Notes under the pieces: model-generated
Seen by the model: only the letters and a program-made list of their open reading frames with translations
The model's database searches: none
Told to the model about the DNA's origin: nothing
Shown here: piece after piece, positions 56 through 31,283 of the stretch
Layout: every line of letters starts with the position of its first letter
Position numbering within the stretch: position 1 is the stretch's first letter
DNA from: a virus
Length of the DNA stretch: 31,317 nucleotides
Strand: one strand, 5' to 3'
Virus record (IMG/VR): IMGVR_UViG_3300045988_067427
Span: 1 to 31,317 of that record
Made by a program: the position numbers and the translations under genes

Positions 56-638
56 TAATGACCAGGGTATTCGTGAGGTTGTTAACCGCCTGGAGGCTAT
101 GGAGAACCGCATAAACGAACTCACTGCCACTATCGGTGGCGAAGGGGCGGTCTATAACCGATCTCTTTTCCACGTTAAGGGTCATGCGAAGTTCGATGGG
201 ACCCTTGAGATTGCTGAAGGCCTGATTGGTGACAAGGCACTTAAGTCTCAGATCGCTGTTGATGCGGGTAATTCCCGCAATCTTGACTGGTCTCCGGTGA
301 CTAGCTGGACCACAGGGGTGTCTACGTTCGTTGTGGCCCCTTCATGGGCTACTAAAGCGCTGGTCATAGCGGGTGGTTCTATCATGCCTAACTACGACGC
401 TAACGCTGGCACCCCTGCGTGCTGGGGTAGGGTCGAGTGCAGGGGGCAATACAGCCCTGACTTCCTGTCTTTCTTGGGATCATCGGCTATCCCATCTAAT
501 ATCTCGTGGCCATTCTTCACTGTACCGGACGAACGAGAAGGGGGGATTGAGGTTAATTGCCAGGCTAAGCTTTATAGCGGTAGTTCTAATAGAGGCGGAC
601 GCTGTTTTGTGTCCGCTGTTGTATTGTGGTTGAGGTGA
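21..638 (+). CDS. Minor tail / putative receptor-binding protein (205 aa)
   Basis: The track ORF is 18..638 (TTG start). I prefer ATG 21, which follows GGAGG (12-16) and overlaps the TGA of the upstream tail gene (TGATG). N-terminal helical heptads (REVVNRLEAMENRINEL) are followed by a Cys-bearing, beta-rich C-terminal half. It is the last ORF of the tail block, and the function is positional inference only. Confidence 0.65.
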   Translation: MSFDPTTVDRPSNDQGIREVVNRLEAMENRINELTATIGGEGAVYNRSLFHVKGHAKFDGTLEIAEGLIGDKALKSQIAVDAGNSRNLDWSPVTSWTTGVSTFVVAPSWATKALVIAGGSIMPNYDANAGTPACWGRVECRGQYSPDFLSFLGSSAIPSNISWPFFTVPDEREGGIEVNCQAKLYSGSSNRGGRCFVSAVVLWLR

Positions 639-639
639 T

Positions 640-1077
640 ATGTTGAGCCCTGAGACTATGGGTAGCCTTATAGGGGCTATCCTAGCGGGTATTTTAGCGG
701 TTGGTTACAGTGGTGTAAAAGTATATAAAGCTATGTCAGGATCGCTTAAGAGGATAAAAGATCTTACTGCTGACCTGAAAGCTGATACTGAAGCGCTGGT
801 CTACGACAAGACTGATGCTGAAGGTAACACAGTTCAGGATAAGTTGAATATTCTACTTAAGCAGGCTGACAAGACTAATACTGACCTCGAGATTCTTTCG
901 TCTACAACGGCGGAAATTAAGGGGGTACTGAACCGGCACGATAAAGAGATTGGTCGGTTTAATGACAATATCACCCAGATTAACGATCGTGTGTCTAACA
1001 CCGAGCGTATGTTGACTTCTAGATTAGAAGAGCACGGCCAGCGCCTACTGGCCGTGGAGACAAGGAAGGAGGGTTAA
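640..1077 (+). CDS. Membrane-anchored coiled-coil protein, function unknown (lysis- or tail-associated)
   Basis: ATG 640 lies one nt after the upstream stop, with GAGGTG just upstream. An N-terminal hydrophobic helix (GSLIGAILAGILAVGYSGV) is followed by ~110 aa of charged, heptad-like sequence. The gene sits directly before the endolysin gene. Confidence 0.7.
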   Translation: MLSPETMGSLIGAILAGILAVGYSGVKVYKAMSGSLKRIKDLTADLKADTEALVYDKTDAEGNTVQDKLNILLKQADKTNTDLEILSSTTAEIKGVLNRHDKEIGRFNDNITQINDRVSNTERMLTSRLEEHGQRLLAVETRKEG

Positions 1078-3159: not shown

Positions 3160-3309
3160 TCAACTCCCTAGATGTTTCTTGATGATGCGCTTGATAATCT
3201 TCTCAGGTGGCCAGCAATACAGGCCTGAGACCTGAGCGATCTCTTGACCACACGCCAGACGTTGCTCCTGGCTAGTGTGAGGGTAGTAGTAGCGCAGCTG
3301 TGCTGCCAT
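3160..3309 (-). CDS. 49-aa hypothetical protein
   Basis: Not in the track. ATG 3309, product MAAQLRYYYPHTSQEQRLACGQEIAQVSGLYCWPPEKIIKRIIKKHLGS, stop TGA at 3160-3162. Fills the gap in the - strand operon. Weak RBS. Confidence 0.45.
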   Translation of the reverse strand: MAAQLRYYYPHTSQEQRLACGQEIAQVSGLYCWPPEKIIKRIIKKHLGS

Positions 3310-4222: not shown

Positions 4223-4252
4223 ATCTTAACACACTCTAGAGGGATTGCACAA
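4223..4252 (-). promoter_or_regulatory. Candidate extended -10 promoter (TTGTGC-N18-TGtTAAGAT) with leaderless geometry
   Basis: On the - strand the -10 TAAGAT is at 4228-4223, preceded by TGt. The -35-like TTGTGC is at 4252-4247. The spacer segment agagtgtgt resembles that of the promoter at 14381-14409. The ATG at 4216 follows after 6 nt. Confidence 0.45.
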
Positions 4253-5849
4253 CTTCAGGCTGCCACTCTCCCGGAGTGTCTAGCCCGGTGACGACGAGGT
4301 CCTGTGACCCCGACTTAGTTTCTACTTGAATACTTAACGACTCTGCCTGTCGAGATATGTACAGACTGTTGTCTGACCAGGCATGCAGGGCCACTGACCC
4401 CGCCAACGCGGCACCCCCAGTGGACGGCATGTCTTTGCTGGCCTTACGTGTGTGGTGCACTATAAGCTGAGCGCACCCCGTAGCCTGTGCTACAGCCTTG
4501 ATGGGCTGGAGTATCTGCCCGTACATAGCCTGTGAGTCATTGATCGACTCCGTGGTCAGCATAGATAGCGTGTCGTAACACACCAGGCCTATGCCCATAG
4601 ACTCTATGGTCTCACCTATCTCCTCGGCTAGTTCCGGTGACAGCCCCTGTGTGGGCCTGCCCGCTATATAGAGCGGGATCTCCCCGTCAGGTGGATTCAG
4701 CTCCAGCACACCGGACTTACAGGTTATGTACCCTCGAGGGTCATTGTTGGGGAAGCGACACTGGAGAATAGTCTGTACGCGAGACCACACGCGCGATAGG
4801 CTGTCCTCCGCCTCGATGATGAGGCAGGGTGCCTGATGTGACCTAGCGTACCCTAGCACTGGCTGACCTAGAGACAAGCTGATAGCCATATCCAGCATGA
4901 TCCAGCTCTTGTAGTGTTTAGGCGGTGCAGCTATGAAGCCGCATCCCCCCTCCTCTACCAGCCCGTCTATACGCCACCGGGGTGGAGGCATGTTGACTAG
5001 CTCAGACAGCTTCCTGATCTGAAGCAAGGGCTCTCTAGGTGAATCTTCAACTATCTCGATAGCTAGCTCAGGTTCAGCCTTAGACCGTGTGTGGTCTAGC
5101 TTTGCAGCCACTCTCTGGACCTCAGCCTTGAGCTTGTCGAGTGACCCCCACTTGTTTAGAGATGTGTGTCTGATCAAGCCGGGGATGAACTCAGCCTCAA
5201 CACCACACTCCAGCATGCTGGCTATAGCCGCATACAGTTGTGATGACCTGTCACCTAGAGCTTTGCTAGCGCGCAGCTGCCCTGCTATAGACGACGAGCT
5301 ACCGTCCAGTGTCCTGTACACTGCTGAGGCTAGCTCACCAGGAGTCTGGGTGGTCCCGTATATCGGACGCCCTACCATGCAGCCTCGCTTGTGCGAGGGG
5401 GTGCCAGGTACCCTGAGTAGCTGAGTAGCGTCCCAGCCCCCAGGGTCGCACCCTAGCACATGGCTGACGGCCCTAGACAGGCTGTCCTGGTCAGGCTGAG
5501 GTAAAGTCTCAGTCAGTCTCCAGATAGCCTGCGTGTGGCCCGGACTGCTAGACCACACAGCGATGGGGTTGGTGCCCTCAGTGTGGCCGTCGTCTACATC
5601 AGACCAGATCAGCGGGCCCGCTTTGAGGTACTCCGCTTTCCTTTCCGGCTTACTGAAAAGACCGGGAGTGAAATATACATCCTGCCCAGCTTCAACGAGA
5701 GACCGAATGTAGTGTTTCGCTTCGTCAAGTTGGTCCACAACCCTAAAGGCTTGGCCCGGGTTGAAAGCCTGACCCGGCCACGTGATCCCACAGATGAAAA
5801 AATACCCATCACAACCCCTCCAAAGAGTCTCGAAGAATCTCATCCTCAA
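4236..5849 (-). CDS. Bifunctional primase-polymerase (AEP prim-pol) fused to a RecA/DnaB-like helicase NTPase
   Basis: N-terminal prim-pol motifs DVYFTPGLF, IWSDVDD, SSSPGHTQAIW and LRVPGTPSHKRG. C-terminal NTPase with Walker A-like AAPPKHYKSW, CLIIEAED and LIVHHTRK. The track start is TTG 5849; ATG 5843 is equally possible. Confidence 0.85.
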   Translation of the reverse strand: MRMRFFETLWRGCDGYFFICGITWPGQAFNPGQAFRVVDQLDEAKHYIRSLVEAGQDVYFTPGLFSKPERKAEYLKAGPLIWSDVDDGHTEGTNPIAVWSSSPGHTQAIWRLTETLPQPDQDSLSRAVSHVLGCDPGGWDATQLLRVPGTPSHKRGCMVGRPIYGTTQTPGELASAVYRTLDGSSSSIAGQLRASKALGDRSSQLYAAIASMLECGVEAEFIPGLIRHTSLNKWGSLDKLKAEVQRVAAKLDHTRSKAEPELAIEIVEDSPREPLLQIRKLSELVNMPPPRWRIDGLVEEGGCGFIAAPPKHYKSWIMLDMAISLSLGQPVLGYARSHQAPCLIIEAEDSLSRVWSRVQTILQCRFPNNDPRGYITCKSGVLELNPPDGEIPLYIAGRPTQGLSPELAEEIGETIESMGIGLVCYDTLSMLTTESINDSQAMYGQILQPIKAVAQATGCAQLIVHHTRKASKDMPSTGGAALAGSVALHAWSDNSLYISRQAESLSIQVETKSGSQDLVVTGLDTPGEWQPEVVQSL

Positions 5850-6114
5850 CCCTAGCTATCTCTTCCTGGTAGGTATCTGGTGTGACACATGCCCAATACC
5901 CTCCGGCTGACATGATATCAGACCCAACCTTGATCTGCCACTGGCTCAAAGATGAGCCTGTTTTAAGCTCCAGACCTACGAACCTACCTCTGAAACAGGC
6001 TATGAGGTCTGGTATGCCTTTCTTAGTGTACTGGCTGGCGTGGTATTTGACAACCCACCAACCACGTGACTCTATATACTTCTGAACTTGTCTTGAGAAT
6101 GTGCTCTCTAGCAT
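5809..6114 (-). CDS. VRR-NUC domain nuclease
   Basis: Track ORF 5809..6255 trimmed to ATG 6114, because the upstream part overlaps the preceding gene. Carries the VRR-NUC signature GIPDLIACFRGRFVGLELKT. Confidence 0.75.
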   Translation of the reverse strand: MLESTFSRQVQKYIESRGWWVVKYHASQYTKKGIPDLIACFRGRFVGLELKTGSSLSQWQIKVGSDIMSAGGYWACVTPDTYQEEIARVEDEILRDSLEGL

Positions 6115-6151
6115 GCCCAGGGCAGGGCTCCTGTCCCTGCCCCAGACTATG

Positions 6152-6598
6152 TCAGAGAATGTCGTCGAACTCGCCGAATTCGTCATCAACAGGCTGCTGG
6201 TCATCGTCCTTGACCTTAAGGTCGACCTCAGAGAACTGGGCCACACGTGCCACACGTGACCTCAACTTGCCATAGAATGTATCATCCTCAAGCTCAACGT
6301 TGATCTTTTTACCAACGTACTTGTCAGGGTCAATCTGTACAACCTTGCTAGGAACCTTAGTACCAGCTGCCTCGATCAGCTCACGAAGTTTCCACAGCTG
6401 ATTAGGGACGATCTTGCAGTAGTAGGGGTAGCGTCCAGGGCCACATTCAATAGCAAAGACAAGCATGTCAGTGCCGTCTTTCTTAGCTTTGGCCAGCTCC
6501 ACACCGGCTATCTCAGCGTTGTACACGCCCGGCTCCTGATGAGCAGCGGTGTACGTGGGGGCCTTGACGTTACTGAAGTCGATCGAGAGTTTAGCCAT
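6152..6598 (-). CDS. DUF669-like / SSB-like protein with acidic C-terminal tail
   Basis: The pattern PGVYNAEIAGVELAKAKKDGTDMLVFAIE is typical of DUF669 proteins that accompany Sak4-like ATPases. The C-terminus DDEFGEFDDIL resembles SSB protein-interaction tails. Confidence 0.7.
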   Translation of the reverse strand: MAKLSIDFSNVKAPTYTAAHQEPGVYNAEIAGVELAKAKKDGTDMLVFAIECGPGRYPYYCKIVPNQLWKLRELIEAAGTKVPSKVVQIDPDKYVGKKINVELEDDTFYGKLRSRVARVAQFSEVDLKVKDDDQQPVDDEFGEFDDIL

Positions 6599-6866
6599 TG
6601 TTAGAGTTCCTTTCCTTAAGGACTGATCGGATGTAGTCGATTGTAGCGGATGTTGTGGTGAAGAAGCAAACCGTGATGGTGAACATATCGCGGTTCATGT
6701 GGTCGTTGTAGCGTACCTCATACTGGCCTACCTGATGAGCCACAGTGATGGGGTTGGGGATGTCGATCACTGCGAGATCCTTGTGCTCGAAGCGCCAGGG
6801 CAAGTCATCCATCTGGTCACACAACCTGACAAGAGCGTTACTACAGACCTTTGAAAAATCAATCAT
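6591..6866 (-). CDS. 91-aa hypothetical protein
   Basis: ORF with 8-nt overlaps to both neighbours in the replication operon. No recognisable motif. Confidence 0.7.
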   Translation of the reverse strand: MIDFSKVCSNALVRLCDQMDDLPWRFEHKDLAVIDIPNPITVAHQVGQYEVRYNDHMNRDMFTITVCFFTTTSATIDYIRSVLKERNSNNG

Positions 6867-7521
6867 GTGTGAGGTACCTTTCCAGTCGCTCCCAAGTGGG
6901 AGACCCCAGCCAGGGCTTTCGAGCTGCGATATCAGCCCTGCACCCTGCCACGATACCCTGTGTGGGCTTGAGCCACATACGGTACCCGGTGTTGGAGTCT
7001 CGCTTAACTGACTCTGTGTAGCCTATCACGTCCGCATACATTAGCGCAAACTGTCGAGCTTGACCGGGAAGGGCCAGCGTGACCTCCTTGGTCTGAGCCA
7101 CATCGGCATCTTCTGGGTCAGCCTCATCCACATAGGTGACTTTAGCCTGGCCCGTCAGGACCACAGGGGTATCAAGGCCCCGCAGAGTGAGGATCAGTGA
7201 CTTGATCAGTTCGTTGGCCTGGCCGTACTGGGGCAGGCTGACAGGCTTAGAGACCGTCAGGAGGTCCCCTCGCTTACGTCCCGATACGAAATTCAGTGCC
7301 AGCTCATGGGCCACAGTGATGCTGTCTATAGATACAGCCTGAGGAGGCTTAGCGACAATTGCCTGAACCTCTTTAGCCAGAGCTTCCCAAGTGTCTACCT
7401 GTGTGGTCTCGGCCTGTACTGCACGGGTGCCGCCTTCGAGGTCAATAATCTTAACCCCAGGCACCGTAGCTGCGAACGTCGTTTTCCCAGTCTTAGGCTG
7501 TCCGTATACTAGTGTGATCAT
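6859..7521 (-). CDS. AAA_24 / Sak4-like RecA-type recombination ATPase
   Basis: N-terminal P-loop MITLVYGQPKTGKTTFA followed by IIDLEGG. Size and neighbours (DUF669, PD-(D/E)XK nuclease) fit the family. Confidence 0.8.
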   Translation of the reverse strand: MITLVYGQPKTGKTTFAATVPGVKIIDLEGGTRAVQAETTQVDTWEALAKEVQAIVAKPPQAVSIDSITVAHELALNFVSGRKRGDLLTVSKPVSLPQYGQANELIKSLILTLRGLDTPVVLTGQAKVTYVDEADPEDADVAQTKEVTLALPGQARQFALMYADVIGYTESVKRDSNTGYRMWLKPTQGIVAGCRADIAARKPWLGSPTWERLERYLTHD

Positions 7522-8465
7522 TTGTACCTCTCCATAGGGTCTCTCTTGTCATAGAATTGAAGGAACTGCTCTTCTGTGCCGAACTCTACCCTAGCCGCTG
7601 CGAGCTTGCCCATACGGCATAGGTACGAATTACCACACACGTTAGGGTTACGGTCCTCTGGTGGCTGAGACCAGTCATACTCACCGACCTGCCTAGCCCA
7701 CCTTAGTATACTCTTTATCTGCCGAGCGTGTACCTGCTTATTGAAGGGCACCAGCAGCCTGGTGAAAGCTGGGCAATGTTGACGCTTCAACAACTCAGCC
7801 TCCTTGACCAGGATATCACAGTCGCTGCTGGAGATCCTCGTCTTGTTCTCATGCATCCAGTCTACCATAGATCGGTAACAAGTGCTACCTGAGCTGCCCT
7901 TGGTGAGCTTGAGCTTGCCCGTCTTGGTCAGCTGCGGCCACACGACTTTCTGTGGCTGGATGTAGTCCCAGATCATACCACCGAGTGGCAGGTCCCAACC
8001 AAGCCTATGCTTGTTGCCCTCAAGAAGCCACAGGTAGGCGTGTGACTGGATATCAAGCTGCCGGTACTCCGCGGTAGGCAGAGTCTGGTGTGTCTTGTGG
8101 TCTAGTACCCATAAGCGTCCACCGAGCTCCACTACCTTATCGATCTTACCCCTGTACTCGTGATTACACCCGGGGATGCCTCGTGACAGGTCCAGCTCGC
8201 ACGCCAGAACGTTGAGGGGCTCATCGCGGTACCTGTACTCATAGGCACGGTACACACGGTCGAGGTCATCGTAGATCTCATGCTCCTCCTCCATGAGGTC
8301 CTCTGGACGCTCTGGGGGAGTACCTGTCTCGAGCCATGAATGTAGGTAGGTACCTCTATCTAGGGCCGTACCTGGATGGGGCTTAGGTGTGATCCCCTGT
8401 AGGTCATAGTAAGCCTCCAGAGGGCAGTTCAGCCAGGACTTGATCAGGCTAGTTGTTATCTGCAT
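7518..8465 (-). CDS. PD-(D/E)XK (Cas4/RecB-like) exonuclease
   Basis: Core motifs GKID...LWVLDHKT and QSHAY (QxxxY). Has an N-terminal Cys (NCPLE) and a C-terminal Cys pair (VCGNSYLC). Confidence 0.75.
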   Translation of the reverse strand: MQITTSLIKSWLNCPLEAYYDLQGITPKPHPGTALDRGTYLHSWLETGTPPERPEDLMEEEHEIYDDLDRVYRAYEYRYRDEPLNVLACELDLSRGIPGCNHEYRGKIDKVVELGGRLWVLDHKTHQTLPTAEYRQLDIQSHAYLWLLEGNKHRLGWDLPLGGMIWDYIQPQKVVWPQLTKTGKLKLTKGSSGSTCYRSMVDWMHENKTRISSSDCDILVKEAELLKRQHCPAFTRLLVPFNKQVHARQIKSILRWARQVGEYDWSQPPEDRNPNVCGNSYLCRMGKLAAARVEFGTEEQFLQFYDKRDPMERYK

Positions 8466-8470
8466 GTCAG

Positions 8471-10195
8471 CTACCTTACATCAATCTCTGGTCCCCAGCA
8501 AGTGCCTACCTCAACATCAGCTACCAGAGGGCAGTCAAAGTGGGGCAGGGGCCCCTCCATGGTCTCCTTGATCATGCTTGCTGTGGTCTCGGCTAGGTCA
8601 TCAGGCACCAGCACGAGCACAGCGTCGTGGATCAGGCCCAGTATGTGGCTGTCACCCTCCAGGCTAGACCACACACGTGTGGCAGCTCTCAGCATGATGT
8701 CGCTACCTGTGCCCTGCACCTGACTATTGACAGCCTGGCGCTCAGCTGCCGCTACCTCGTATTCGTCATCGCTGTATAGTCCTGGCAGGTGTCGCCTACG
8801 GCCGAACATAGTCGACGAGTACCCCAGCTGATGAGCCTTAGCTTTGGCCCTAGCGTGCCATGGGCGTAGCCCTGACCAGTGCTGGAAGAAGGACTCCCTG
8901 AAGGACTCAGCCTCCTCGAGCGTGATGTCAGTACCGTAGCTAACCTTAGCGAACTGGACGAACGACTTAGCGCTCATGCCGTACAGGAATCCGAAGTTGA
9001 CGATCTTAGCTTTCCTACGGTCAAAGCTATTGTCCGGATCCAGCCCGATAGCACGTGTGGTCTGTGAGTGGATGTCCCCGCCCTGTCTGTACAGCTCGAG
9101 CATATTCTTGTCACGCGAGACCACAGCTGCAACGCGTAGCTCCAGCTGGCTGTAGTCAGCCTCAATGATCTTGTACCCGTCAGGGGCAGCTACCAGGCCC
9201 CTTATGAAGGGGTCCTTCGGAACTTGCTGTAGGTTCACGCCAACACCGTCACATACTTTGCTCGAGGATAGACGCCCAGTCACAGTACCGTGGAGCTTAA
9301 ATGACGTGTATAAACGTCCCCTTTCGTCTATTTGTTCTTTATATGGGGTAATAAACCCGTCTATGTTCTTCTTTAGTCGTGACCTTTCTAATAGTGTTTT
9401 AGCAATAGGGTGATCCATATAAGCAAGAGCCTTCTTGGAAAGGCTAGGAGCACCATTAGGGAATGCTTTAGTAGGCTTTCCTACCTCCTTTTTGGGGATT
9501 CCCAAATAGTCGTACAGGAACCACCGCTGAAAGTTAGTAGTCCCCCATTTAACCTGCATACCTTCGGGTATTTCTGAAGGTATTTCTGACTGTAATTTGG
9601 CGTCTATCTTAGCCAATTCAGAGGTGTATCTACGCTCGGCTATCTCGAGCTTACCCCGGCTAATCGGAATACCGTAGTCTTCGGACTCGGCTAGCATGTT
9701 GATAGCCGGGACCACAACCTTCTTGAGGAGTTTCTTCTGATTGAGGGTGAGTTTACCCCTGTTAATCCGGTATAGCTCACGTGTGGCCAGGAGGTCCTTT
9801 TTCAGATATGTGGCCATAGCTTCAGGATCAGAGTCATCCCACACACCGTCATAAGACCAGTCCCCGCCCATAAAGTCAGCCATGAGAGACTTAAGGCCTA
9901 GAGGTCGATTCTCGTCCACCATATGAGCACCCAGCATAGTGTCTCCAGCTGCCTCGATATCGGCACCGAACCGCTTAGCGTACACTATGTCGAATTTGAT
10001 GTTGTGGCCCATAACCGGAGGGAGTTTTCCACACAGCTTGACAAGCCTAGCACGCCATGTCTCAGGGTGCTTAGAGGCCATGTGGAAAACACGTGGCTCA
10101 TCTTCAGGCTTATCACCAAGGATGCCCACCATAAGCACGGCGGCATCCTTGGCGCGGGGATTAAGCCCTGTGGTCTCGATGTCTAGAAATAACAT
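8471..10195 (-). CDS. Family A DNA polymerase with 3'-5' exonuclease domain
   Basis: Exonuclease motifs FLDIETTGL, HNIKFD and YLKKD. Polymerase motif A DYSQLELRV, motif B RRKAKIVNFGFLYGMS, motif C LIHDAV. No 5'-3' exonuclease domain. Confidence 0.95.
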   Translation of the reverse strand: MLFLDIETTGLNPRAKDAAVLMVGILGDKPEDEPRVFHMASKHPETWRARLVKLCGKLPPVMGHNIKFDIVYAKRFGADIEAAGDTMLGAHMVDENRPLGLKSLMADFMGGDWSYDGVWDDSDPEAMATYLKKDLLATRELYRINRGKLTLNQKKLLKKVVVPAINMLAESEDYGIPISRGKLEIAERRYTSELAKIDAKLQSEIPSEIPEGMQVKWGTTNFQRWFLYDYLGIPKKEVGKPTKAFPNGAPSLSKKALAYMDHPIAKTLLERSRLKKNIDGFITPYKEQIDERGRLYTSFKLHGTVTGRLSSSKVCDGVGVNLQQVPKDPFIRGLVAAPDGYKIIEADYSQLELRVAAVVSRDKNMLELYRQGGDIHSQTTRAIGLDPDNSFDRRKAKIVNFGFLYGMSAKSFVQFAKVSYGTDITLEEAESFRESFFQHWSGLRPWHARAKAKAHQLGYSSTMFGRRRHLPGLYSDDEYEVAAAERQAVNSQVQGTGSDIMLRAATRVWSSLEGDSHILGLIHDAVLVLVPDDLAETTASMIKETMEGPLPHFDCPLVADVEVGTCWGPEIDVR

Positions 10196-10698
10196 TTTGT
10201 CAACTCTTTGGCAAGCTTGTGAGCGGTGCGCACATCTGTGGTTGATTTGTACTCAATTGATTCTTCACCAATAGTGAAAGTCGTAGCTGTGCGGAACTTG
10301 TTCAACTTCCAGCTGGCCGTCCGTGCACACTCAGTAACCCACGAGCGGTACCCAATGCTCAGAACCAGGAATTCAGCCCAAGAGTACCCAGTCTCGGCGC
10401 CTGCCCACAACTGCTTACCCCAGTCCGAGAACAAGTCATCTAAGTTGAATGCAATCACGGCCAAGTTGAACCCCTTAGCCCGTGGTACGTTAGGCTTAGC
10501 CCCTGCTCGGATTTCAGAATTGATACCCACGTAATCGTGGATATCCCCGTCAACCCACGAGCGGGTCATGACACCGTGTGAGTTCTGTGGGTCCACAACC
10601 AGCTCGCTGGGGGCGTACCCCAGCCCTCGGGCGAAGACTTCAGGGGTAACCCCTGGGGTGGCTGCAATGACAAGTCGGTCAGACGGATTCACTAACAT
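10183..10698 (-). CDS. 171-aa hypothetical protein
   Basis: Good RBS (AGGAGAG 4 nt before ATG 10698). Overlaps the helicase stop by 20 nt and the polymerase start by 13 nt. No motif recognised. Confidence 0.75.
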   Translation of the reverse strand: MLVNPSDRLVIAATPGVTPEVFARGLGYAPSELVVDPQNSHGVMTRSWVDGDIHDYVGINSEIRAGAKPNVPRAKGFNLAVIAFNLDDLFSDWGKQLWAGAETGYSWAEFLVLSIGYRSWVTECARTASWKLNKFRTATTFTIGEESIEYKSTTDVRTAHKLAKELTKCYF

Positions 10699-12043: not shown

Positions 12044-12303
12044 TAGTTAATTGCTCCTTCAATCATCTTCTTGTACTGGAGTGTGGTCCCAGTACCCATC
12101 CTAGCAACCTCCACACCCTCGCGCAAGGCGATAACTGTAGGCACGGACATGATGTCAAATTTACGCCCTAGGTCAGGGTTGACCTCAACATCAACGTAAT
12201 CCCAACCAAGGTAAGGGAACTTTTGCATAGCCCTTTCAAAATTAGCCTTGGCTTGCGGGCACTGTGCACACCATGGGGCTCCAACAAAGAACAACTTCAA
12301 CAT
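12043..12303 (-). CDS. Thioredoxin-fold redox protein
   Basis: 86 aa with a WCAQCP CxxC motif and the SVPT cis-Pro element. Its ATG overlaps the stop of the upstream gene (TAATG), and its own stop overlaps the ATG of the downstream helicase gene. Confidence 0.8.
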   Translation of the reverse strand: MLKLFFVGAPWCAQCPQAKANFERAMQKFPYLGWDYVDVEVNPDLGRKFDIMSVPTVIALREGVEVARMGTGTTLQYKKMIEGAIN

Positions 12304-16425: not shown

Positions 16426-16454
16426 TTGCGAGGTGGCAGGGAGTGTGCTAGGTT
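16426..16454 (+). promoter_or_regulatory. Extended -10 promoter TTGCGA-N17-TGcTAGGTT, leaderless geometry
   Basis: -35 at 16426-16431 and -10 at 16449-16454, preceded by TGc. ATG 16461 starts 6 nt after the -10. Confidence 0.55.
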
Positions 16455-16460
16455 GGGGGC

Positions 16461-17407: not shown

Positions 17408-17804
17408 TGTTTGGGAAGAAGGTGTTATTTTGACCGAAGAAGAGCGTTTTAGTGAGATTCCTCCAGGAATCGCCAATAACGAGGTTCTCCGAGGTGTGTG
17501 GTCCGAACTTGTAGGTATGATGCCCAAGGAAGTCTTGGATAACCTCGACGAGATGGATGGCCTGTTTATCGAGGCTATGTGTCGACATTATGCTATTGCT
17601 CGAAAAGCGTCAAATGAGGTTATTTCAGCTGATAGTGTGCTGGTTACTGATAACCCTAATCATAGGATGCAGAAGCACCCAGCTGAGGTTATTTTCCGGT
17701 CACAATCTCAGGCATTCCTCGCTTATATGAAAGAGGCTGGATGGACGCCTAAAGCAAGGAATTCGGGTAAGAATAAAGACACTGATAACCCATTCCTTAT
17801 GTGA
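17400..17804 (+). CDS. Terminase small subunit (P27-like)
   Basis: Lies between the HNH and the large terminase. ~130 aa and helical, with the pattern LFIEAMCRHYAIARKA typical of P27-family small terminases. The start is uncertain (GTG 17400 or TTG 17430). Confidence 0.7.
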   Translation: MFTVWEEGVILTEEERFSEIPPGIANNEVLRGVWSELVGMMPKEVLDNLDEMDGLFIEAMCRHYAIARKASNEVISADSVLVTDNPNHRMQKHPAEVIFRSQSQAFLAYMKEAGWTPKARNSGKNKDTDNPFLM

Positions 17805-19530: not shown

Positions 19531-21402
19531 GTGGGTTTCTGGTCTGGTATCTTTAACCGACTTCAGGGCATTACCACGTATGAGCCTCGGCAGTATAAGA
19601 TCGGCCCAACTGAGTTGGTTGATCTTTCCGGTGTTTCAGCCGCTAAGCTATTCAAGACTCAACCACACCTTCGGACTGTGGTTACGTTCCTTGCCAGGAA
19701 TATCGCTCATCTGGGTGTACATTCCTATGTTAAGCAAAGCGATGGGGGCAGGCTGAGGGATACCTCGTCCCCTGTTGGCGGGTTTCTCTCTGGTGCCAAA
19801 GCTAATGAGTCGATGACCTTGTATCAACTGGTCTACGCTCTGGTTGTGGATAAGGCCCTATATGATAGGGCCTACTGGTGGCCAGTAGTGAACCAGAACG
19901 GTAACTGGGAAGTCTACCGCCTGCCTCCGTCGTGGGTCCAGACTAAGTCTGACAATTTCGGTAAGGTCACTCATGAGGTCAGCTTCGAGTCTGACAAGAA
20001 GCTAGTCCTGGATGCTAGTCGTGTGGTCTACTTCGGTGGCTATCACCCAACTGACCCTGGCGGGTGCAGCGCTACGATTGTCAGCCTGAAAGAGGTCCTG
20101 GCTGAGCAGATTCAAGCTAGCAAATACAGGCAGCAGTTGTGGGCTCGCGGTGGCAAAGTGTCGGCTGTGCTTCAGCGCCCTGTGGATGCGCCTCGCTGGA
20201 CTGACGCTCAACGTGAGACCTTCCGAGAAGATTGGTACGAGAAGTACACTGGGTCAGGTAAGCGCGCTGGAGGTACTCCCATCCTTGAGGATGGAATGAC
20301 TCTTAATAGGGTTGATTTCAGTGCTACTGATCAGCAGTACATTGAGGGCGTTAAGCTTGCTTATTCGACTGTAGCTAATGCGTTCCACGTTAACCCTACA
20401 ATGGTTGGTATTCTTGACAATGCCAATTACAGCAATGTCAGGGAATTCCGTAAAATGCTTTATGGGGATACGCTAGGTCCGCTTATTGCGGAAATAGAGT
20501 CTACTCTTAATGCATTCCTTATCCCTATTATGGGTGGGGCTAAAGGCAGCTACATTGAATTCAATGTAGCTGAGAAACTTCAGGCTGATTTCGAGCAGCA
20601 AGCCCAATGGTTCCAGTCAGCTGTGGGCTCGGCTTACATGACCCGTAATGAGGCTAGGGCCCGTCTTAATCTTCCTGCTATTGACGGTGGGGATGACCTG
20701 ATCACGCCACTGAACGTGAGTGTGGACCCTGGAGGCTATAACCAGAACTCAGGCGTGGTCAGGGTTAAGAGTAGGGCGCTACGTGTGGACCGTAAGTCAT
20801 GGGTCAAGAGGTACACGACGGTGCTTGAAGCCCACGCAAGGAAGACCTTGTACAAGTCAGGTCGGTTGAAGGTTAAAGCTTCAGCTGACGAGTCGTTAGC
20901 TGAGGACCTGCTTGACCTTGATCTGGGGCTGACCGGTGAGGTTGGTAGCAAACTGCTCGAAGGGCGTGACGATGACTACGACAAAGGGTCTACTCGGTCG
21001 TACCTGAAGAAGCGTGCTAAGCGAATATCTCAGGGTATCGTTGATAGCCTAGAGGACCTAGAGGACGAGCAGGCTGAGTGGGAAGCGGCTATGGAGGGGG
21101 ATGATCCTCCGGACACTGTCGAGCCTGTTGAACACTGGCTGAAAGAGTCAGCTCTGGGTATGGCGGGGTCTATGGTTACGTGGGCTATGGGTTGGGCCAC
21201 ACAGGAGGCTGGCAGGCAGTCTGGTGCAGCCACCAAGACCTGGCACACGGGACCTAACGCTCGGGACTCACACGCTGCTATGGACGGTGAGCGTGTGGGC
21301 CTGGATGAGGAATTCTCTAACGGCATGAAGTATCCCGGTGATGACGATGACCCTGCTGAGGTAGCTCACTGTAATTGCACGACTAGCATAGATTGGGAGT
21401 AG
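19531..21402 (+). CDS. Portal protein fused to a MuF-like minor head domain
   Basis: GTG start after GGAGGTG. ~400 aa HK97-type portal region, then an acidic linker and a C-terminal MuF signature WHTGPNARDSHAAMDGERV...YPGDDDDPAEVAHCNC. Confidence 0.9.
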   Translation: MGFWSGIFNRLQGITTYEPRQYKIGPTELVDLSGVSAAKLFKTQPHLRTVVTFLARNIAHLGVHSYVKQSDGGRLRDTSSPVGGFLSGAKANESMTLYQLVYALVVDKALYDRAYWWPVVNQNGNWEVYRLPPSWVQTKSDNFGKVTHEVSFESDKKLVLDASRVVYFGGYHPTDPGGCSATIVSLKEVLAEQIQASKYRQQLWARGGKVSAVLQRPVDAPRWTDAQRETFREDWYEKYTGSGKRAGGTPILEDGMTLNRVDFSATDQQYIEGVKLAYSTVANAFHVNPTMVGILDNANYSNVREFRKMLYGDTLGPLIAEIESTLNAFLIPIMGGAKGSYIEFNVAEKLQADFEQQAQWFQSAVGSAYMTRNEARARLNLPAIDGGDDLITPLNVSVDPGGYNQNSGVVRVKSRALRVDRKSWVKRYTTVLEAHARKTLYKSGRLKVKASADESLAEDLLDLDLGLTGEVGSKLLEGRDDDYDKGSTRSYLKKRAKRISQGIVDSLEDLEDEQAEWEAAMEGDDPPDTVEPVEHWLKESALGMAGSMVTWAMGWATQEAGRQSGAATKTWHTGPNARDSHAAMDGERVGLDEEFSNGMKYPGDDDDPAEVAHCNCTTSIDWE

Positions 21403-22085
21403 CGATTAAGACTAAGTCGTTTAAGGTTAAAGCAGAAGAGTCTAAGTCCAGTACTGGTGTGTTCACTGGGTACGCGTCGGTATTCGGTAACGTCGACTCG
21501 TATGGTGACGTCATGGTGCAGGGTGCGTTCGCTGACACCCTGAAAGAATGGGAAGGCCGGAAGATTCCAGTCTTCTATGGACATGACCTCACTGACCCGA
21601 TGAATAATATTGGCTACGTCGAGAGTGCCGAGGAAGACGACACCGGACTGCTTGTCAGGTGTGTGGTCGACACTGAGGGTCCGGGTAACGGGCCTGTCGT
21701 ATATAAGCTTTTGAAGGAAGGCCGAATCGACCGCATGTCGTTCGGCTTCTACGTTAATGACGCAGATCACAAGGACGGCAAGACTTACATTAAGAGTGTG
21801 TCGCTGCTTGAGGTGTCTGTGGTCCCTGCCCCAGCTAATGCTGAGGCAGCTATTACTGACGTCAAGTCTAAGAAGGAGACAGCAGAAGTGACTGCTGAAG
21901 AGATTGCTGAGCTTGTGGTCAAGCCGATTATCGAAGCGCTTGAGTCCAAGCTCGATGAGTATTTCGATGAGGAAGACAAGCCTGAGGATAAGCCGTCTGA
22001 TAAGCCTGAGGATAAGCCTGAGGATAAGCCTGCTGATGATCAGGCTAAGTCTATTCTAGCTGAGATTAAGGGGTTGTTTGAGTGA
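21393..22085 (+). CDS. HK97-family prohead protease with repeat-containing C-terminal tail
   Basis: FTGYASVFGNVDSYGDVMVQGAF is typical of S78 prohead proteases. TTG start overlapping the portal stop. The C-terminus carries (E/S)DKP x5. Confidence 0.85.
   Translation: MGVAIKTKSFKVKAEESKSSTGVFTGYASVFGNVDSYGDVMVQGAFADTLKEWEGRKIPVFYGHDLTDPMNNIGYVESAEEDDTGLLVRCVVDTEGPGNGPVVYKLLKEGRIDRMSFGFYVNDADHKDGKTYIKSVSLLEVSVVPAPANAEAAITDVKSKKETAEVTAEEIAELVVKPIIEALESKLDEYFDEEDKPEDKPSDKPEDKPEDKPADDQAKSILAEIKGLFE
21972..22031 (+). repeat. Five tandem 12-nt units (gaRgaYaagccN) encoding (E/S)DKP
   Basis: gaagacaagcct gaggataagccg tctgataagcct gaggataagcct gaggataagcct. Confidence 0.9.
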
Positions 22086-23799: not shown

Positions 23800-24176
23800 G
23801 CTTTCCCTTTCTAACTAATGGTTATATCTGGGTGGCTCGACTTCAGGACAAGTATGATGACCGGGGTAATCTGATTCAAGACCAGGTTGCTAAGGAGTTC
23901 ACTATCCAGGGCTGCTCTATTCAGCAACCTAGTGCTGCTGAGCTGTCTGGTGATAGGCAGGGTGACGGTCAGTGGACGTACACGGTGTACGCCCCGCTGA
24001 CTGCTAGTGTCCAGGCTAAGGACCTGGTCATCTTGAGCTGGGACCACAAAGGTACGCCGGGAGAATGGTTCAACAAGACCACACCTGTGTACCGTGTGTC
24101 CGGAGTTCCCGGCGTGTGGTCTTATGACTACCTCGGCCTTAGCCACCAGGTGATTAAGCTTGTGGCGGTGGACTGA
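23796..24176 (+). CDS. Head-closure / head-tail adaptor, positional call
   Basis: 126 aa with a TTG start overlapping the upstream stop. Confidence 0.5.
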   Translation: MSFPFLTNGYIWVARLQDKYDDRGNLIQDQVAKEFTIQGCSIQQPSAAELSGDRQGDGQWTYTVYAPLTASVQAKDLVILSWDHKGTPGEWFNKTTPVYRVSGVPGVWSYDYLGLSHQVIKLVAVD

Positions 24177-24442: not shown

Positions 24443-24854
24443 TTTCGTTGCTGAGTTCCCTGACGCTGAGGCTGCCTGTATTATGGGGCTGCGGGCCCAT
24501 CTACAGGGGGTACCTGTCAGGCAGCAGGCAGACAAGCTAGGAACTCGTCAGTGTGTGGTCAAGCTGACTAGCTCGGGTACTCGTCTGGATCCCCGCAGGG
24601 TTAGGGTGCAGTTGACTGTAACGTGCTGGGGTAAGGACAATACTGACAGCACCGAAGCGTTTGACCTTGCAGCTAAATGCCTTAATTGGGTTGAAGAGAG
24701 ACCTTATTATGGGCATATGGGTAAATATCCTTGCCATAAAGTCGATATTGTTTCTTACCCTTATTTTGATCCTGACAGTAGTCAGACGACTGGTGGTTCA
24801 GGTATCGCTCGATATTCTTTTACATTCCGCACTATTCTAGCAGGAGTTAACTAA
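24435..24854 (+). CDS. Tail terminator / tail completion protein, positional call
   Basis: Track ORF 24414..24854 trimmed to ATG 24435, which has GGGAG 9 nt upstream. 139 aa. Confidence 0.55.
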   Translation: MGNFVAEFPDAEAACIMGLRAHLQGVPVRQQADKLGTRQCVVKLTSSGTRLDPRRVRVQLTVTCWGKDNTDSTEAFDLAAKCLNWVEERPYYGHMGKYPCHKVDIVSYPYFDPDSSQTTGGSGIARYSFTFRTILAGVN

Positions 24855-25771: not shown

Positions 25772-26136
25772 TAAGGCTAGTGGGTGTGTGGCATAATCAC
25801 CCACTAGCCTTAGAGCGTGAGCTCATTGGGCTAGGTTTGAGGTCCCGTCAGGTAGGCACAGATGAGCTTACTTGGCGGGACCTTCAGGCTATAGTCAACC
25901 ATGCTGAGCCAGGAGGGCCGCTGGCTAACAGTCTCGGCTACGTGTGGACCACAGACGGCTATATGTTGGCTAATATATATGACGTATTAGCTGAGGCTAA
26001 CTGGCAGAGATCTGGGAAGTCTAGTGAGCCACACCCCAAGCCTATTAGGCGCCCTAACGAAGTTAGGGATGATGAGAAATCGTTTGGGTATGACCCTATT
26101 CCTTTGAGTGAGTTTAATGATTGGTGGGATAGTTAA
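25442..26136 (+). CDS. Tail assembly chaperone, -1 frameshift product (G-T-like)
   Basis: The -1 frame is open from 25753 and continues through track ORF 25780..26136. The only shift window contains GGGGGAA (25762-25768), immediately before the G-frame stop TAG (25769-25771). Confidence 0.6.
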
Positions 26137-28490: not shown

Positions 28491-29329
28491 AAGAAGTCAC
28501 GTGGAATGGCCACGTGATCAACGGTGGGGACTGGGTTGTGAGCGAGTGCAAGCTCTTCGGCTCAGCCCCTGCCGTTGCGCAGAGTGGCCAGCGTGTGGGC
28601 TATGATGGTATATGGCGTACTAAAGCCTACCACGGCGCTAAGTCCGGTGCTATCAAGGGCTATTATGTAGGGCAGTCTCTGGAGGATGCTGAGGAGGCCA
28701 TGGAGACTCTCCTGAGTATCGCGGATATTAATACCTCACCTCTGACTGTTAATACGCCTCGTGGCCCGAAAACAATGTATGTGGCCCGGGATAGCGCTCT
28801 GGATATAACGTTCCTGGCTAACGGGTCAGCATTTGAGTGGGGGGCCACACTGATAGCTCCTGACCCTGTGTGGTGGCGTGGAGGTCAGACTCCGGATGGC
28901 CAGATCGATGATCAGTATACAGCTAAGCATAGGTTGTACCTACCCAATCTAACTGGCGGTATTAAGTTCCCTCTAAAATACCCTATATCTTTCTTGGAGT
29001 CGGGTAACTATGGGTCGGTCACGGTAAGTTCTGGCTACCGTAACAGGGTTAGTCTTAAGCTTTACGGCTATGTGCAGATACCGTCTGTGATCTTCTCTGG
29101 TCCTGGTGGGGCTGGCCGTTTGCGGTGGGACTTTACCCTACAGCAAGATGAGTGGTTAGATATTGATTTAACTAACCGCACGTCACTTAGGCAGGGCCAG
29201 TCTGCTGCTGCCCCCACTATTAGGGAATGGCCTGAGCTTGGTCGGGGTGAATTGACTATTGGGTTCAGGTCTGATGTGTATTCCCCTACCGCTTATCTTG
29301 ATGTAATTGTGAGACAGGTGACTATATAA
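28487..29329 (+). CDS. Distal tail protein (Dit-like), positional call
   Basis: 280 aa with a GTGA overlap to the tape measure stop. Confidence 0.6.
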   Translation: MKEVTWNGHVINGGDWVVSECKLFGSAPAVAQSGQRVGYDGIWRTKAYHGAKSGAIKGYYVGQSLEDAEEAMETLLSIADINTSPLTVNTPRGPKTMYVARDSALDITFLANGSAFEWGATLIAPDPVWWRGGQTPDGQIDDQYTAKHRLYLPNLTGGIKFPLKYPISFLESGNYGSVTVSSGYRNRVSLKLYGYVQIPSVIFSGPGGAGRLRWDFTLQQDEWLDIDLTNRTSLRQGQSAAAPTIREWPELGRGELTIGFRSDVYSPTAYLDVIVRQVTI

Positions 29330-30219
29330 TGGCTCTTGATGGAGTGCTACCTATTGGTGGCAATGTATCTATTAATGCCGCGGAGTTTAGGCGGCTTGAT
29401 GTGGGCTCTACTATGGTCCACGACACTCACCCTCTGGCATGTAGGCCAGGGGTTACGTCTGGTATGACACCTAGCCTCAATGGCAGTCAGGTTCGTGTCA
29501 GCTCTGGCACGGCTATTGTGACGCCTGTGGCCTCGAATAATGGTAGTTACAGGGTTAGCAACGTCGATGATGTTAGCTTGCCTCTGTACGCTAAGGACAC
29601 GTCTTACCCGCGCACTGATATTCTGGTGCTGAAAGTTTATGACGGTACTGTGGACGGTTCTAACCAGTACAAGGCTGCGTTTGAGATGATTAAAGGCACG
29701 GCGTCGGCTAGCTTCCCTACGCCAGCTACGCCGTCTGGTGCACTGCTTCTAGCGCGTATCATAGTGTCTACTACCGGTAGCCCTACGATTTACGATGCTA
29801 GGCAGTATACCTGTGCGGTGGGCGGTACTATCCCGTGCTATTCGAATAGCCGGCCCACAACGTGGTTCCTCCAGAGGGGCCAACGCATTTATGAGCTGGA
29901 CACCAACAAGGTTATGTTGTGGACTGGTAGTTCTTGGCGTGAGGATACGGTGATTCCTCAGGTTACTCTGCCCCGTATACCAGCTATTGCGTCGGGTACG
30001 GTGACGGCTAGTAGTGCTGGGCCTGCTGTATTCACTATTCAGTTCCCGCCAGGGCGGTTTAGTAGCGCCCCTCGTGTTGTGGCCTCGGTTAGGTCGGCTT
30101 CAGGTGACTTCACGTGGGATACGCCCAAACCATACAACGTCACTGCGACACAATTCCAGATGTTCGTCAAGAATGGTCGTGGTTGTGACTTCGACTGGAT
30201 AGCGATCGAGAACGGCTAA
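29329..30219 (+). CDS. Minor tail protein
   Basis: 296 aa with a TAATG junction. The N-terminal pattern (VRVSSGTAIV...YPRTDILVLKVYDG...LLLARIIV) is seen in actinophage tail and receptor-binding proteins. Confidence 0.65.
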   Translation: MALDGVLPIGGNVSINAAEFRRLDVGSTMVHDTHPLACRPGVTSGMTPSLNGSQVRVSSGTAIVTPVASNNGSYRVSNVDDVSLPLYAKDTSYPRTDILVLKVYDGTVDGSNQYKAAFEMIKGTASASFPTPATPSGALLLARIIVSTTGSPTIYDARQYTCAVGGTIPCYSNSRPTTWFLQRGQRIYELDTNKVMLWTGSSWREDTVIPQVTLPRIPAIASGTVTASSAGPAVFTIQFPPGRFSSAPRVVASVRSASGDFTWDTPKPYNVTATQFQMFVKNGRGCDFDWIAIENG

Positions 30220-31283
30220 TGATTAAATGGCAGTCGTTTGCAGCTCTAGACGGTAGACCTCTGACTGAGCTACCTGGACTAGCTGTCAAATCAAGCCTGT
30301 CATCCATCATCGGGCGGGGAGACTCTGTGACTGTGAGTCTCCCCGTCTGTGATAGGTGGCCAGCTAACTGGATGGATGGCACTCAGCCTATGCGTGCCGT
30401 CCTGGCAGCTATAGACGACAATATTGTGTTGTGGGCTGGCTGGGTAGAGAAGCGCTCATACGGGTCAGGTGAGTCCATGGAGCTGACTCTACAGCCTGCC
30501 GAGGAGTGGCTGAAGCGCAACTATATCCCTGAACTGGTTTTCAGGGACCAACGGTATACCACGATCGCTAGAGGGATAGGTCTAGACCGCCTGGTAGCTC
30601 AGTTTAATGGGCGTCTGGATGAGGATCCTACCCTTGATTGGGGTGATAGGACGTACCGTGCTGACCAGGATATGACGTGCTTGGCAGGTCTCCAGAACCT
30701 CATGAAGACTAGGCATGGTGCAGAGTTCGCTACGTCATGGGAACTGCGCGAGAACGGTCATCTCGGTATTGTGGTCCACACAGCGTACCGTCTTGGAGGT
30801 GTGGGTAAAGACACTGCCGGCGCTGCTGTGCTATCTCAAGGCTCCTGGCAACAGGTCGAGGACTGCTCTGACGGTAAAGGAGCCACAATCTGGCGTGTGG
30901 TCTCGAATAGGTCTGGGGATGAACGCAAGGAATTCGCCACGTCTAACGGTCAAGTCCTGCAATATGGGTGGCTTGAGCTTGAGAGACGGTGGACTCCTGA
31001 CACAGGGTCAGTTGATGACACTGTTTTGCAGCAATACATGTATGCAGCTAAGGAGAGTCAGTCCTACGGGCTGACTTCAATCAGTGTGGAGACTACTTTG
31101 GACCACTTCATGCCAGGTCGTGACTTTGTTCTAGGCGACTATGTGGATATTGATATGACTAATCTTAGTAACCCAGAGCTGAAATTCAAGGGTAAGGCCC
31201 GTGTTATTGGTTGGGTATGCGACCCTGACCCCGTATCTGGGGAACTCACTAAGATTAAGCCTATGCTTTCACTGGAGGATTGA
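30219..31283 (+). CDS. Minor tail protein
   Basis: 354 aa with a TAATG junction. Its stop lies inside the 55-nt terminal overlap. Confidence 0.65.
   Translation: MIKWQSFAALDGRPLTELPGLAVKSSLSSIIGRGDSVTVSLPVCDRWPANWMDGTQPMRAVLAAIDDNIVLWAGWVEKRSYGSGESMELTLQPAEEWLKRNYIPELVFRDQRYTTIARGIGLDRLVAQFNGRLDEDPTLDWGDRTYRADQDMTCLAGLQNLMKTRHGAEFATSWELRENGHLGIVVHTAYRLGGVGKDTAGAAVLSQGSWQQVEDCSDGKGATIWRVVSNRSGDERKEFATSNGQVLQYGWLELERRWTPDTGSVDDTVLQQYMYAAKESQSYGLTSISVETTLDHFMPGRDFVLGDYVDIDMTNLSNPELKFKGKARVIGWVCDPDPVSGELTKIKPMLSLED

Follow-up and report, generated by a model that had tools for sequence, protein, structure and literature searches.

A TGTGG-core word enriched across a siphovirus genome as a candidate initiation signal for a RepB'-type primase-helicase

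The DNA analysed here, the full 31,317-nt stretch of IMG/VR virus record IMGVR_UViG_3300045988_067427 (hereafter the window, to which all coordinates refer), is a siphovirus genome of ~31 kb that is circularly permuted in the record and carries a short word, S-TGTGG-N-C, on both strands and throughout its length. Copies of this word are strongly enriched and are under purifying selection, synonymous positions included, and across phages the word tracks a replication module, not the host or the virion genes; it serves as a marker of a replication module widespread among phages. The best explanation, favoured here with modest confidence, is that the dispersed words are template initiation signals for the phage's own replicative primase, and we infer that the protein encoded at 4236-5849, predicted to be a RepB'-type primase fused to a RepA-type helicase, reads the word and starts primers there.

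Enrichment, distribution and conservation of the word

The octamer GTGTGGTC ranks first among the 8-mers of the window under every null run, Markov orders 0-5 among them. Relative to a codon-preserving shuffle that keeps every protein sequence and the codon usage of each gene, 25 octamers were observed versus 7.7 ± 1.6 expected (z 10.6), 45 TGTGGTC heptamers versus 14.7 (z 11.7) and 88 copies of GTGTGG versus 30 (z 14.4). A preliminary description of this DNA had counted, by eye, 14 plus-strand and 11 minus-strand octamers and 45 TGTGGTC core sites; on recount every octamer coordinate and the 20 additional heptamer coordinates proved exact, and the hand tally was not inflated. The same description had named the variants GTGTGGAC and GTGTGGCC as enriched (7 and 15 copies on recount) and had correctly given T as the next base after GTGTGGTC in 15/25 copies; its independent-base estimate agrees with the computed expectation of 1.08 octamers and 4.0 heptamers. 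The >20-fold excess that it reported holds against independent bases but shrinks to ~3-4-fold against the coding-aware null. Because the codon-preserving shuffle gives far lower counts, in both orientations, the enrichment is not a peptide or codon artefact, as had been argued from the start.

The functional family, S-TGTGG-N-C, comprises 113 sites in the whole window, 68 on the plus strand and 45 on the minus strand, made up of 45, 34, 20 and 14 copies with T, C, G and A at the free position. TGTGGTC starts on the plus strand at 1948, 3829, 5090, 6698, 7402, 8096, 8582, 9056, 10169, 12082, 13485, 16275, 17497, 17916, 18623, 20022, 21662, 21818, 21914, 23188, 24115, 24554, 30770 and 30896, and minus-strand copies (GACCACA) start at 308, 3246, 4783, 5551, 7159, 8667, 9119, 9710, 10773, 11870, 12856, 12999, 13447, 15802, 16583, 16707, 17885, 24042, 24077, 25947 and 26618. 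TGTGGCC starts at 332, 1338, 2316, 2905, 5534, 5582, 9782, 9809, 10003, 10754, 12843, 12906, 13614, 14169, 14667, 18054, 22204, 22519, 27092, 28183, 28780, 29526 and 30078 (plus) and, as GGCCACA, at 1551, 2179, 6239, 6439, 7309, 7936, 14233, 15631, 19008, 21195 and 28843 (minus). TGTGGGC is found at 1092, 4650, 6961, 18537, 19031, 20138, 20622, 21294, 24328, 26462, 27698, 28142, 28594, 29400 and 30430 (plus) and as GCCCACA at 10403, 13661, 17054, 23457 and 29853 (minus). The rarest form, TGTGGAC, starts at 18843, 20721, 20784, 25943, 29649 and 29918 (plus) and as GTCCACA at 3414, 5733, 10591, 12718, 12759, 12954, 14527 and 30774 (minus).

Enrichment of TGTGGNC over the shuffle is alike in the two orientations, with 69 sense sites versus 18.1 expected (3.8-fold) and 40 antisense sites versus 9.6 (4.2-fold; z > 12 for both). 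An asymmetry of sites between strands and genome arms (Fisher P 0.004) reflects the coding baseline only, because sense and antisense fold enrichment is the same. Sites lie a mean of 277 bp apart, or 461 nt on the plus and 696 nt on the minus strand, without regional gaps, and spacing on the plus strand is more regular than random (coefficient of variation 0.75, P 0.009). Their density is 3.7 per kb within genes and 2.0 per kb in intergenic DNA. For the heptamer, the earlier tally of ~26 sense and 18 antisense copies becomes 23 sense, 18 antisense and 4 intergenic, the last group bearing out the statement that the word also occurs in non-coding DNA. The copy at 15802 had been assigned to a promoter spacer, and no sigma-70-like promoter was found around it. 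The tail genes (26.7-30.7 kb) had been described as empty, which is true of the T variant but not of the family, with 14 TGTGGNC sites versus 14.4 expected; recent import of these genes, as read from a lack of the word, was rejected on that density and on their ordinary identity to relatives. The 35-nt stretches on either side of the 113 sites fold with the same energy as controls, giving no sign of hairpins there.

Selection on the words was measured in 22 relatives rebuilt from IMG/VR at ~87% nucleotide identity to the window. The word is present in them, with 20-27 octamers and 36-50 heptamers in each complete genome, and the window's heptamers are intact in 75.6% of relatives versus 44.9% for random 7-mers. 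Conservation exceeds background for each of the four TGTGGNC words (z 2.9-6.1) but mostly not for TGTGGN[A/G/T]; the GTGTGGHC family of the preliminary description is therefore real but too narrow. G or C is favoured before TGTGG, and the footprint covers ~8-10 bp, with unconserved flanks beyond about -1 to +8. Third-codon positions at the fixed positions of the word are conserved at 0.877, compared with 0.714 in the flanks and 0.726 genome-wide (P ~1e-15), and the free N falls almost always at a non-synonymous codon position. The heptamer occupies 81 orthologous positions over the 23 genomes with ~44 per genome throughout, which implies that sites turn over at a fixed density.

Exact octamers on the plus strand lie at 5089-5096, 7401-7408, 12081-12088, 17496-17503, 17915-17922, 18622-18629, 21661-21668, 24114-24121, 24553-24560 and 30895-30902, at 1947-1954 (intergenic, just upstream of the gene at 1988) and at 9055-9062 and 20021-20028, both with the heptamer intact in 22/22 relatives. 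On the minus strand (GACCACAC as read on the plus strand) they lie at 4783-4790, 5551-5558, 12999-13006, 13447-13454, 16583-16590, 17885-17892 and 24077-24084, at 3246-3253 (intergenic), at 8667-8674 (heptamer intact in 22/22 relatives) and at 16707-16714, a recent gain whose heptamer occurs in only 1/21 relatives. The remaining two sit in an 11-nt perfect inverted pair, with GACCACACACC at 15802-15812 as the left arm (octamer 15802-15809, minus strand) and GGTGTGTGGTC at 16271-16281 as the right arm (octamer 16274-16281, plus strand, intact in 21/21 relatives), facing inward around a divergent intergenic region at 15784-16460. This region, which also holds two to three copies of the C-rich direct repeat TCCCCCCAAACCCCCCT, a perfect 19-nt palindrome (15996-16014/16029-16047) and several further inverted repeats, may be a replication origin.

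Some copies are closely coupled: palindromic doublets (TGTGGACCACA at 25943-25953 and TGTGGTCCACA at 30770-30780) and close inverted pairs (GACCACAC-N23-GTGTGGTC at 17885-17922 and GACCACAC-N30-GTGTGGTC at 24077-24121) place the word on each strand at the same spot. A separate sequence, CGCGCGCG, is also over-represented, with 4 copies versus ~0.2-0.3 expected in the window and 4-6 in some relatives (L060, L068); the copy at 15931-15940, at least, falls within the putative origin.

The replication module and its primase-helicase

A TGTG(G/C)-core word stands at or near the top of the k-mer ranking in 17/17 module-bearing genomes or lineages examined, and the hosts of word-bearing phages (Actinomycetota, Pseudomonas, Serratia, Desulfofustis and Clostridium) span four phyla. 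The best N-TGTG-N hexamer ranks 1-80 of 2080 in 14/14 genomes with the module and 149-626 in 4/4 genomes without it. Cultured word-bearing phages encode a primase-helicase 27-33% identical to that of the window, within the same syntenic module, and have the same core as their top word. This word (observed versus expected) is GTGTGGCC in the Microbacterium phages Velene (37 versus 2.6) and CaptainRex (28 versus 2.5); GGTGTGG in the Gordonia phage Survivors (50 versus 12), the Mycobacterium phage FF47 (39 versus 9) and the Streptomyces phage KimJongPhill (44 versus 11); GTGTGG in the Mycobacterium phage Muddy (71 versus 23), the Pseudomonas phage Almagne (74 versus 16) and the Serratia phage Serbin (62 versus 14); CCTGTGGA in a Desulfofustis phage (14 versus 1.4); and TGTGG in the Clostridium phage P21 (121 versus 53). 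The core is retained, next to different flanks, in three metagenomic intermediates (44-48% primase identity) and in the sister clade in IMG/VR with 53% TerL identity. An initial view that this clade lacks both word and module proved wrong, given its 30%-identical primase-helicase and its weaker S-TGTGG-G enrichment.

Module-less controls (L5, Shambre1, ThankyouJordi and CharlieGBrown, one of them grown on the same host strain) show no enrichment of the word, and the k-mer method recovers the stoperator core of L5 as a positive control (TGTCAAGT, the top 8-mer of that genome). The window's structural genes are found again in Shambre1 and ThankyouJordi (TerL E ~1e-155), neither of which has the word, and word-bearing phages share with the window only replication genes, not structural genes. 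Within single hosts, Muddy has the word on M. smegmatis and L5 and CharlieGBrown do not; Gordonia phages with the module have it and ThankyouJordi does not. In these phage genomes the word tracks the replication module across hosts and is absent from other same-host phages, which makes a host-matched signal very improbable, and the host-matched Chi proposed in the preliminary description is not supported. Words are biased to the top strand in Muddy (L164, 32:8), FF47 (L134, 32:7), Serbin (L144, 44:18) and CaptainRex (L135, 25:11), genome-wide and independently of transcription direction, whereas the window is symmetric; the bias suggests a polar process in those lineages, for example rolling-circle replication from a fixed strand. 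Word spacing in other lineages is 0.7-2.8 kb per strand, counted on the richer strand. Literal-string and topic searches of the literature, limited in reach, found no description of the word, and a paper on Microbacterium-phage genomics gives repeats for other clusters and none for cluster EA.

In the window the module lies in a leftward early arm (3.3-15.8 kb) whose products include the primase-helicase, a VRR-Nuc-like nuclease, a Sak4-like ATPase, a Cas4/PD-(D/E)XK exonuclease, a family-A polymerase (PolA), an SNF2-type helicase, and thioredoxin-like, ThyA-like and dCMP-deaminase-like proteins. The co-inherited replication/recombination block (5809-12043, minus strand) consists of the VRR-Nuc-like gene (5809-6255), an open reading frame (6152-6598), the Sak4-like ATPase (6859-7521), the 315-amino-acid (aa) Cas4/PD-(D/E)XK exonuclease (7518-8465), the family-A DNA polymerase (8471-10195) and the SNF2-type helicase (10679-12043).

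The 4236-5849 protein (minus strand) is predicted by profile, Pfam and fold to be a RepB'-type primase fused to a RepA-type helicase, the two halves being joined through a disordered linker. Its N-terminal half (aa 1-258, 5076-5849) is assigned to the RepB'-type archaeo-eukaryotic primase (AEP) catalytic and helix-bundle domains: a profile of 11 homologs searched against the PDB matches RepB' (3H20, E 2.6e-6), and Pfam RepB_primase is matched by 11/11 homologs (best 7e-11). This half was modelled separately, as a full-length fold search is swamped by the helicase half; the AlphaFold model (predicted local distance difference test (pLDDT) 94, predicted template modelling (pTM) score 0.90, helices at 170-257) finds full-length RepB' 3H20 as its best fold match (E 1.4e-7), with the catalytic domain 3H25 at a root-mean-square deviation of 4.0 Å and the pRN1 primase also among the matches. 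Invariant D84, D86, D135 and R146 align with the DxDD, DP..D and RxxG motifs of RepB'. The C-terminal half (aa ~272-537, 4236-5036) is assigned to the RepA/DnaB-type hexameric helicases, matching Pfam AAA_25 (6e-27), RSF1010 RepA (1G8Y) by sequence, and DnaB, Twinkle and RepA (1OLO, template modelling score 0.71) by fold. RepB' and a RepA-type helicase are the two replication enzymes of the IncQ plasmid RSF1010. Public annotations of the fusion (L132-L136, L144, L145, L164) vary among 'RecA-like DNA recombinase', 'DNA recombinase', 'RepA', 'ASCE ATPase' and 'DNA primase/helicase', and the profile and fold evidence supports primase-helicase.

On ssiA, the RepB' primer begins at thymine 32, which lies within GTG, and dATP is the base-specific first nucleotide; the pRN1 helix-bundle primase likewise depends on GTG (PMC8567376). 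The IncQ1 oriV record has GTGTG at nt 31-35 in both ssi sites, and the word core G-T-G-T-G-G holds GTG twice, that is, the RepB' start context. Two phages with a RepB'-like domain joined to DUF3987 also have a TGTG word, with TGTGC in place of the TGTGG and varying flanks of the RepB'+RepA fusions: the top hexamer by far in the Arthrobacter phage Rings is GTGTGC (97 versus 25), identical to nt 31-36 of one ssi site, and Yappy has CTGTGC (96 versus 40). CharlieGBrown, with a Prim-Pol-type primase and an AAA_25 helicase, has no word. Among these phages the word thus follows the RepB'-type primase domain, not the helicase domain, although RepB'-type domains without a TGTG word also occur (L123-L126, L085 and L086).

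Candidate functions of the word

Phage-primase initiation sites had been suggested in the preliminary description, and this is the proposal that we favour, with a change of enzyme from the pRN1/Prim-Pol type to a predicted RepB' (RSF1010)-type AEP with a RepA-type helicase. The RepA-type helicase would travel 5' to 3' on the single-stranded template, and the primase would start a primer opposite T within the G-T-G-T-G core, with the 3'-flanking bases (G-N-C in the window clade) aiding recognition and remaining uncopied. Chance alone would satisfy a requirement of 6-8 nt no more than about once every 3.6 kb on each strand; selection would therefore have added words on both strands, mostly through synonymous sites and the single free position, until one stood roughly every 460-700 nt, which is the scale of Okazaki fragments. 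Lineages with diverged primases would retain the TGTG core and prefer other flanks.

Several observations weigh against this assignment. The module is inherited as a block, so presence and absence cannot separate the primase from the Cas4 exonuclease, Sak4, SNF2 or PolA. A RepB'-type domain by itself is insufficient for the word, with no TGTG enrichment in the ~15-20-kb pieces of L123-L126 (RepB'+DUF3987), L085 (RepB'-like plus D5 helicase) and L086. The phage words have neither the 5' anchor nor the hairpin required by RepB', so they would need to be recognised in another way than ssiA/ssiB. The top-strand bias of Muddy and FF47 fits a polar Chi-like signal as well as it fits rolling-circle lagging-strand priming. 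Finally, only four module-less genomes serve as complete controls, and there is some relatedness among the positive genomes. Other words are ~2-fold enriched in some of the word-free pieces (TGTAG(A) in L085 and L086, GTAGT/TCTAC in L123-L125; the pieces are short and the effect weak) and may be alternative specificities.

The main rival is a phage-intrinsic Chi-like signal read by the Cas4/RecB-type exonuclease, the SNF2-type helicase and Sak4, its effect being less degradation, promotion of recombination-dependent replication, or a 'self' mark against word-poor host DNA. We regard this as unlikely, and as slightly more doubtful still the specific form in which the word is a private Chi or 'self' mark, the module's helicase-nuclease and Sak4 sparing word-dense phage DNA for recombination-dependent replication and degrading host DNA. 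The Cas4-type exonuclease is among only three proteins common to all nine TGTGG(+) cultured genomes and its distribution mirrors that of the word; carriers of the RepB' domain outside the module lack the word; and G/T-rich words of 5-8 nt set in genes genome-wide, together with strong strand polarity in Muddy, FF47, Serbin and CaptainRex, recall Chi sites. Within the 315-aa exonuclease, however, no sequence-reading domain comparable to those of RecC or AddB was found; L125 has a Cas4-like exonuclease and PolA and lacks the word, and Yappy and Rings have a TGTG word with a much shorter Cas4. The enrichment in the window is strand-symmetric, and the match to the GTGTG start context of RepB' would be left unexplained. 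Duplex-DNA binding sites for another early protein, architectural or regulatory and stoperator-like in a broad sense, which would organise or silence the genome, are improbable. No small early protein is common to all word-bearing phages, although the window has several without an assigned function, and no repressor or integrase family match was found among the window proteins. Conservation of the words as DNA, the few palindromic doublets (25943, 30770) and the close inverted pairs (17885/17916, 24077/24115) would suit such binding, but the excess of genic over intergenic sites is the reverse of typical operators, the orientation is symmetric, unlike that of L5 stoperators, and L5 itself shows a different stoperator word and no TGTGG enrichment. 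The stoperator proposal of the preliminary description is not supported, on these same grounds.

A word without function could arise from composition or mutation, for example through a context bias of the phage polymerase or of the nucleotide-metabolism genes, or as a side-effect of codon or dipeptide usage. The module has its own PolA, ThyA-like and dCMP-deaminase-like genes, and a mutational attractor would look both enriched and 'conserved'; this origin is nonetheless very improbable, given that the enrichment withstands amino-acid- and codon-preserving shuffles in both orientations, that the footprint is sharp (five fixed bases, one free and a fixed C, with TGTGGN[A/G/T] mostly not conserved), that flanks vary among lineages with the same polymerase family, and that TGTGG is not enriched in L5 and Yappy, which also encode a family-A polymerase. 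Least probable of all is a host-directed signal, whether Chi for host RecBCD/AddAB/AdnAB or weak DnaA boxes titrating or recruiting host DnaA. The conserved CCACA end of the DnaA box reads TGTGG on the opposite strand, and universal DnaA could account for a core shared across phyla. That core is all that is shared, however: complete DnaA boxes are found 0-4 times per genome (10 times in AT-rich P21), the window has 4 matches to TGTGNAWAA and 2 to TGTGGAYAA with (T/C)C, not A-Y-A-A, as the preferred 3' flank, and across phages this flank is lineage-specific (TC, CC, GT and others) and not A-W-A-A; the DnaA-box suggestion made earlier is not supported. The core also recurs in phages whose hosts differ in their end-processing enzymes (judged from phage genomes alone), and is missing from other phages of those hosts.

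Were the words priming sites, a RepB'-type primase would for the first time be seen in a replicative rather than an origin-only role, and a whole genome would be a clear case of constraint at synonymous sites by the sequence requirement of a primase. The best-supported reading, a replicative RepB'-type primase-helicase whose 6-8-nt requirement would have reshaped whole genomes, is partly new. It supplies a candidate recognition sequence for a primase-helicase family that is often annotated 'RecA-like DNA recombinase' and is present in hundreds of sequenced phages, mycobacteriophage Muddy included, and would mean that recoding or engineering such phages must keep word density. The word is a simple metagenome signature for the replication module, and its lineage-specific flanks could restrict module swaps between phages. 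The Chi-like alternative, if true, would be equally interesting as a portable, host-independent Chi system across four bacterial phyla.

Genome context and comparison with known systems

Outside the early arm, the plus strand of the window encodes virion proteins (16.4-31.3 kb) and lysis proteins (1-3 kb). No DNA-level match to cultured phages was found (megablast, 25 kb of the window), and its TerL is at most 47% identical to large terminases of Arthrobacter and Gordonia phages. Human metagenomes frequently contain this phage, and its proteins fall in ~900-member clusters labelled only 'MAG TPA: Caudoviricetes sp.'. The host is presumably an actinobacterium; a TerL scan of genome contigs matched only one mis-binned contig of a metagenome-assembled genome, and an endolysin search recovered only a 41%-identical prophage junction. 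Beside the genes for the small and large terminase lies an HNH endonuclease gene (16985-17368), an arrangement that recalls HNH-dependent cos packaging. Independently assembled contig ends of relatives (L004, L009, L013, L014, L016, L026, L028 and L030; L006, L007, L010, L012 and L019) fall into two classes, 1621-1835 nt or 457 nt upstream of TerL, which map to ~15980-16192 and ~17357 in the window and could represent either true ends of the genome (cos) or points where assembly broke at the palindrome. The ThyA-like protein (275 aa; region 12303-13857) overlaps an unusually long (252 aa) dCMP-deaminase-like gene and has no tblastn match at E ≤ 0.01 to thymidylate synthase genes of other module-bearing phages. 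Relatives additionally carry dUTPase/MazG, thymidylate kinase and glycosyltransferases, and taken together these features hint at non-canonical pyrimidine metabolism or DNA modification in the module. Upstream of the holin, a 284-aa protein (1078-1932) without a Pfam domain, one distant family member of which is named endolysin, and the gene at 1988-2695, with a weak GH16/concanavalin-like domain, may form an uncharacterised lysis cassette. One IMG/VR contig (L046) has 46 overlapping G8 matches, almost certainly a poly-G artefact of sequencing or assembly.

Among known systems of dispersed sites, the stoperators of L5-type (cluster A) phages resemble the word in being short, asymmetric and scattered in tens of copies, also within genes. 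They are 13 bp long, bound by the phage repressor, co-oriented with transcription and found in temperate phages, whereas the window has a ~8-10-bp footprint, no repressor or integrase found and symmetric orientation. Chi sites are likewise short, G/T-rich, spread genome-wide in coding sequence of any frame and kept by selection. A Chi sequence suits the enzyme of its host, is enriched in that host's chromosome and shows strong strand polarity; the window word has a core common to phages from hosts in four phyla, goes with a phage module and, in the window, is symmetric between strands.

Sequence-specific primases offer closer parallels. T7 gp4, like the proposed reader, is a fused primase-helicase that uses a short word on the lagging-strand template (5'-GTC-3' core; (G/T)GGTC, GTGTC) and recognises 3' 'cryptic' bases that remain uncopied; the window word even includes TGGTC. 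The T7 primase is of the DnaG/TOPRIM type with a zinc finger, an unrelated fold, and its 3-5-nt sites are frequent by chance, whereas the window word is longer and the genome is sculpted to carry it. To our knowledge T7 primase sites show no comparable genome-wide enrichment, and the resemblance, offered as a precedent in the preliminary description, is probably coincidental. The pRN1 precedent, cited alongside it, is relevant through its GTG requirement, together with the RepB' start within GTGTG. The pRN1 protein ORF904 has an AEP primase with a helix bundle and GTG-dependent initiation (PMC8567376), as proposed for the window. It belongs to another AEP family (Pfam Prim-Pol) and is fused to a superfamily 3 (SF3) helicase, and CharlieGBrown, the word-free phage noted above, is the sole Prim-Pol-type phage examined.

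RSF1010 and other IncQ plasmids differ from the window in having exactly two 40-nt sites, one per strand at the origin, used in leading-strand mode only; in each, the start is preceded by a 5' hexanucleotide anchor and a hairpin at nt 7-27. The window has 113 bare 7-8-nt words over both strands, which lack both anchor and hairpin, and its primase and helicase are fused in one protein. The likenesses are a primase domain that profile, Pfam and fold place as homologous to RepB', a homologous RepA-type helicase, and a start context, G-T-G-T-G (nt 31-35, start T32), that equals the word core. Of all the sites, only the inward-facing word pair at 15802/16271 resembles the oriV layout, flanking the putative origin in the manner of ssiA and ssiB in IncQ plasmids.

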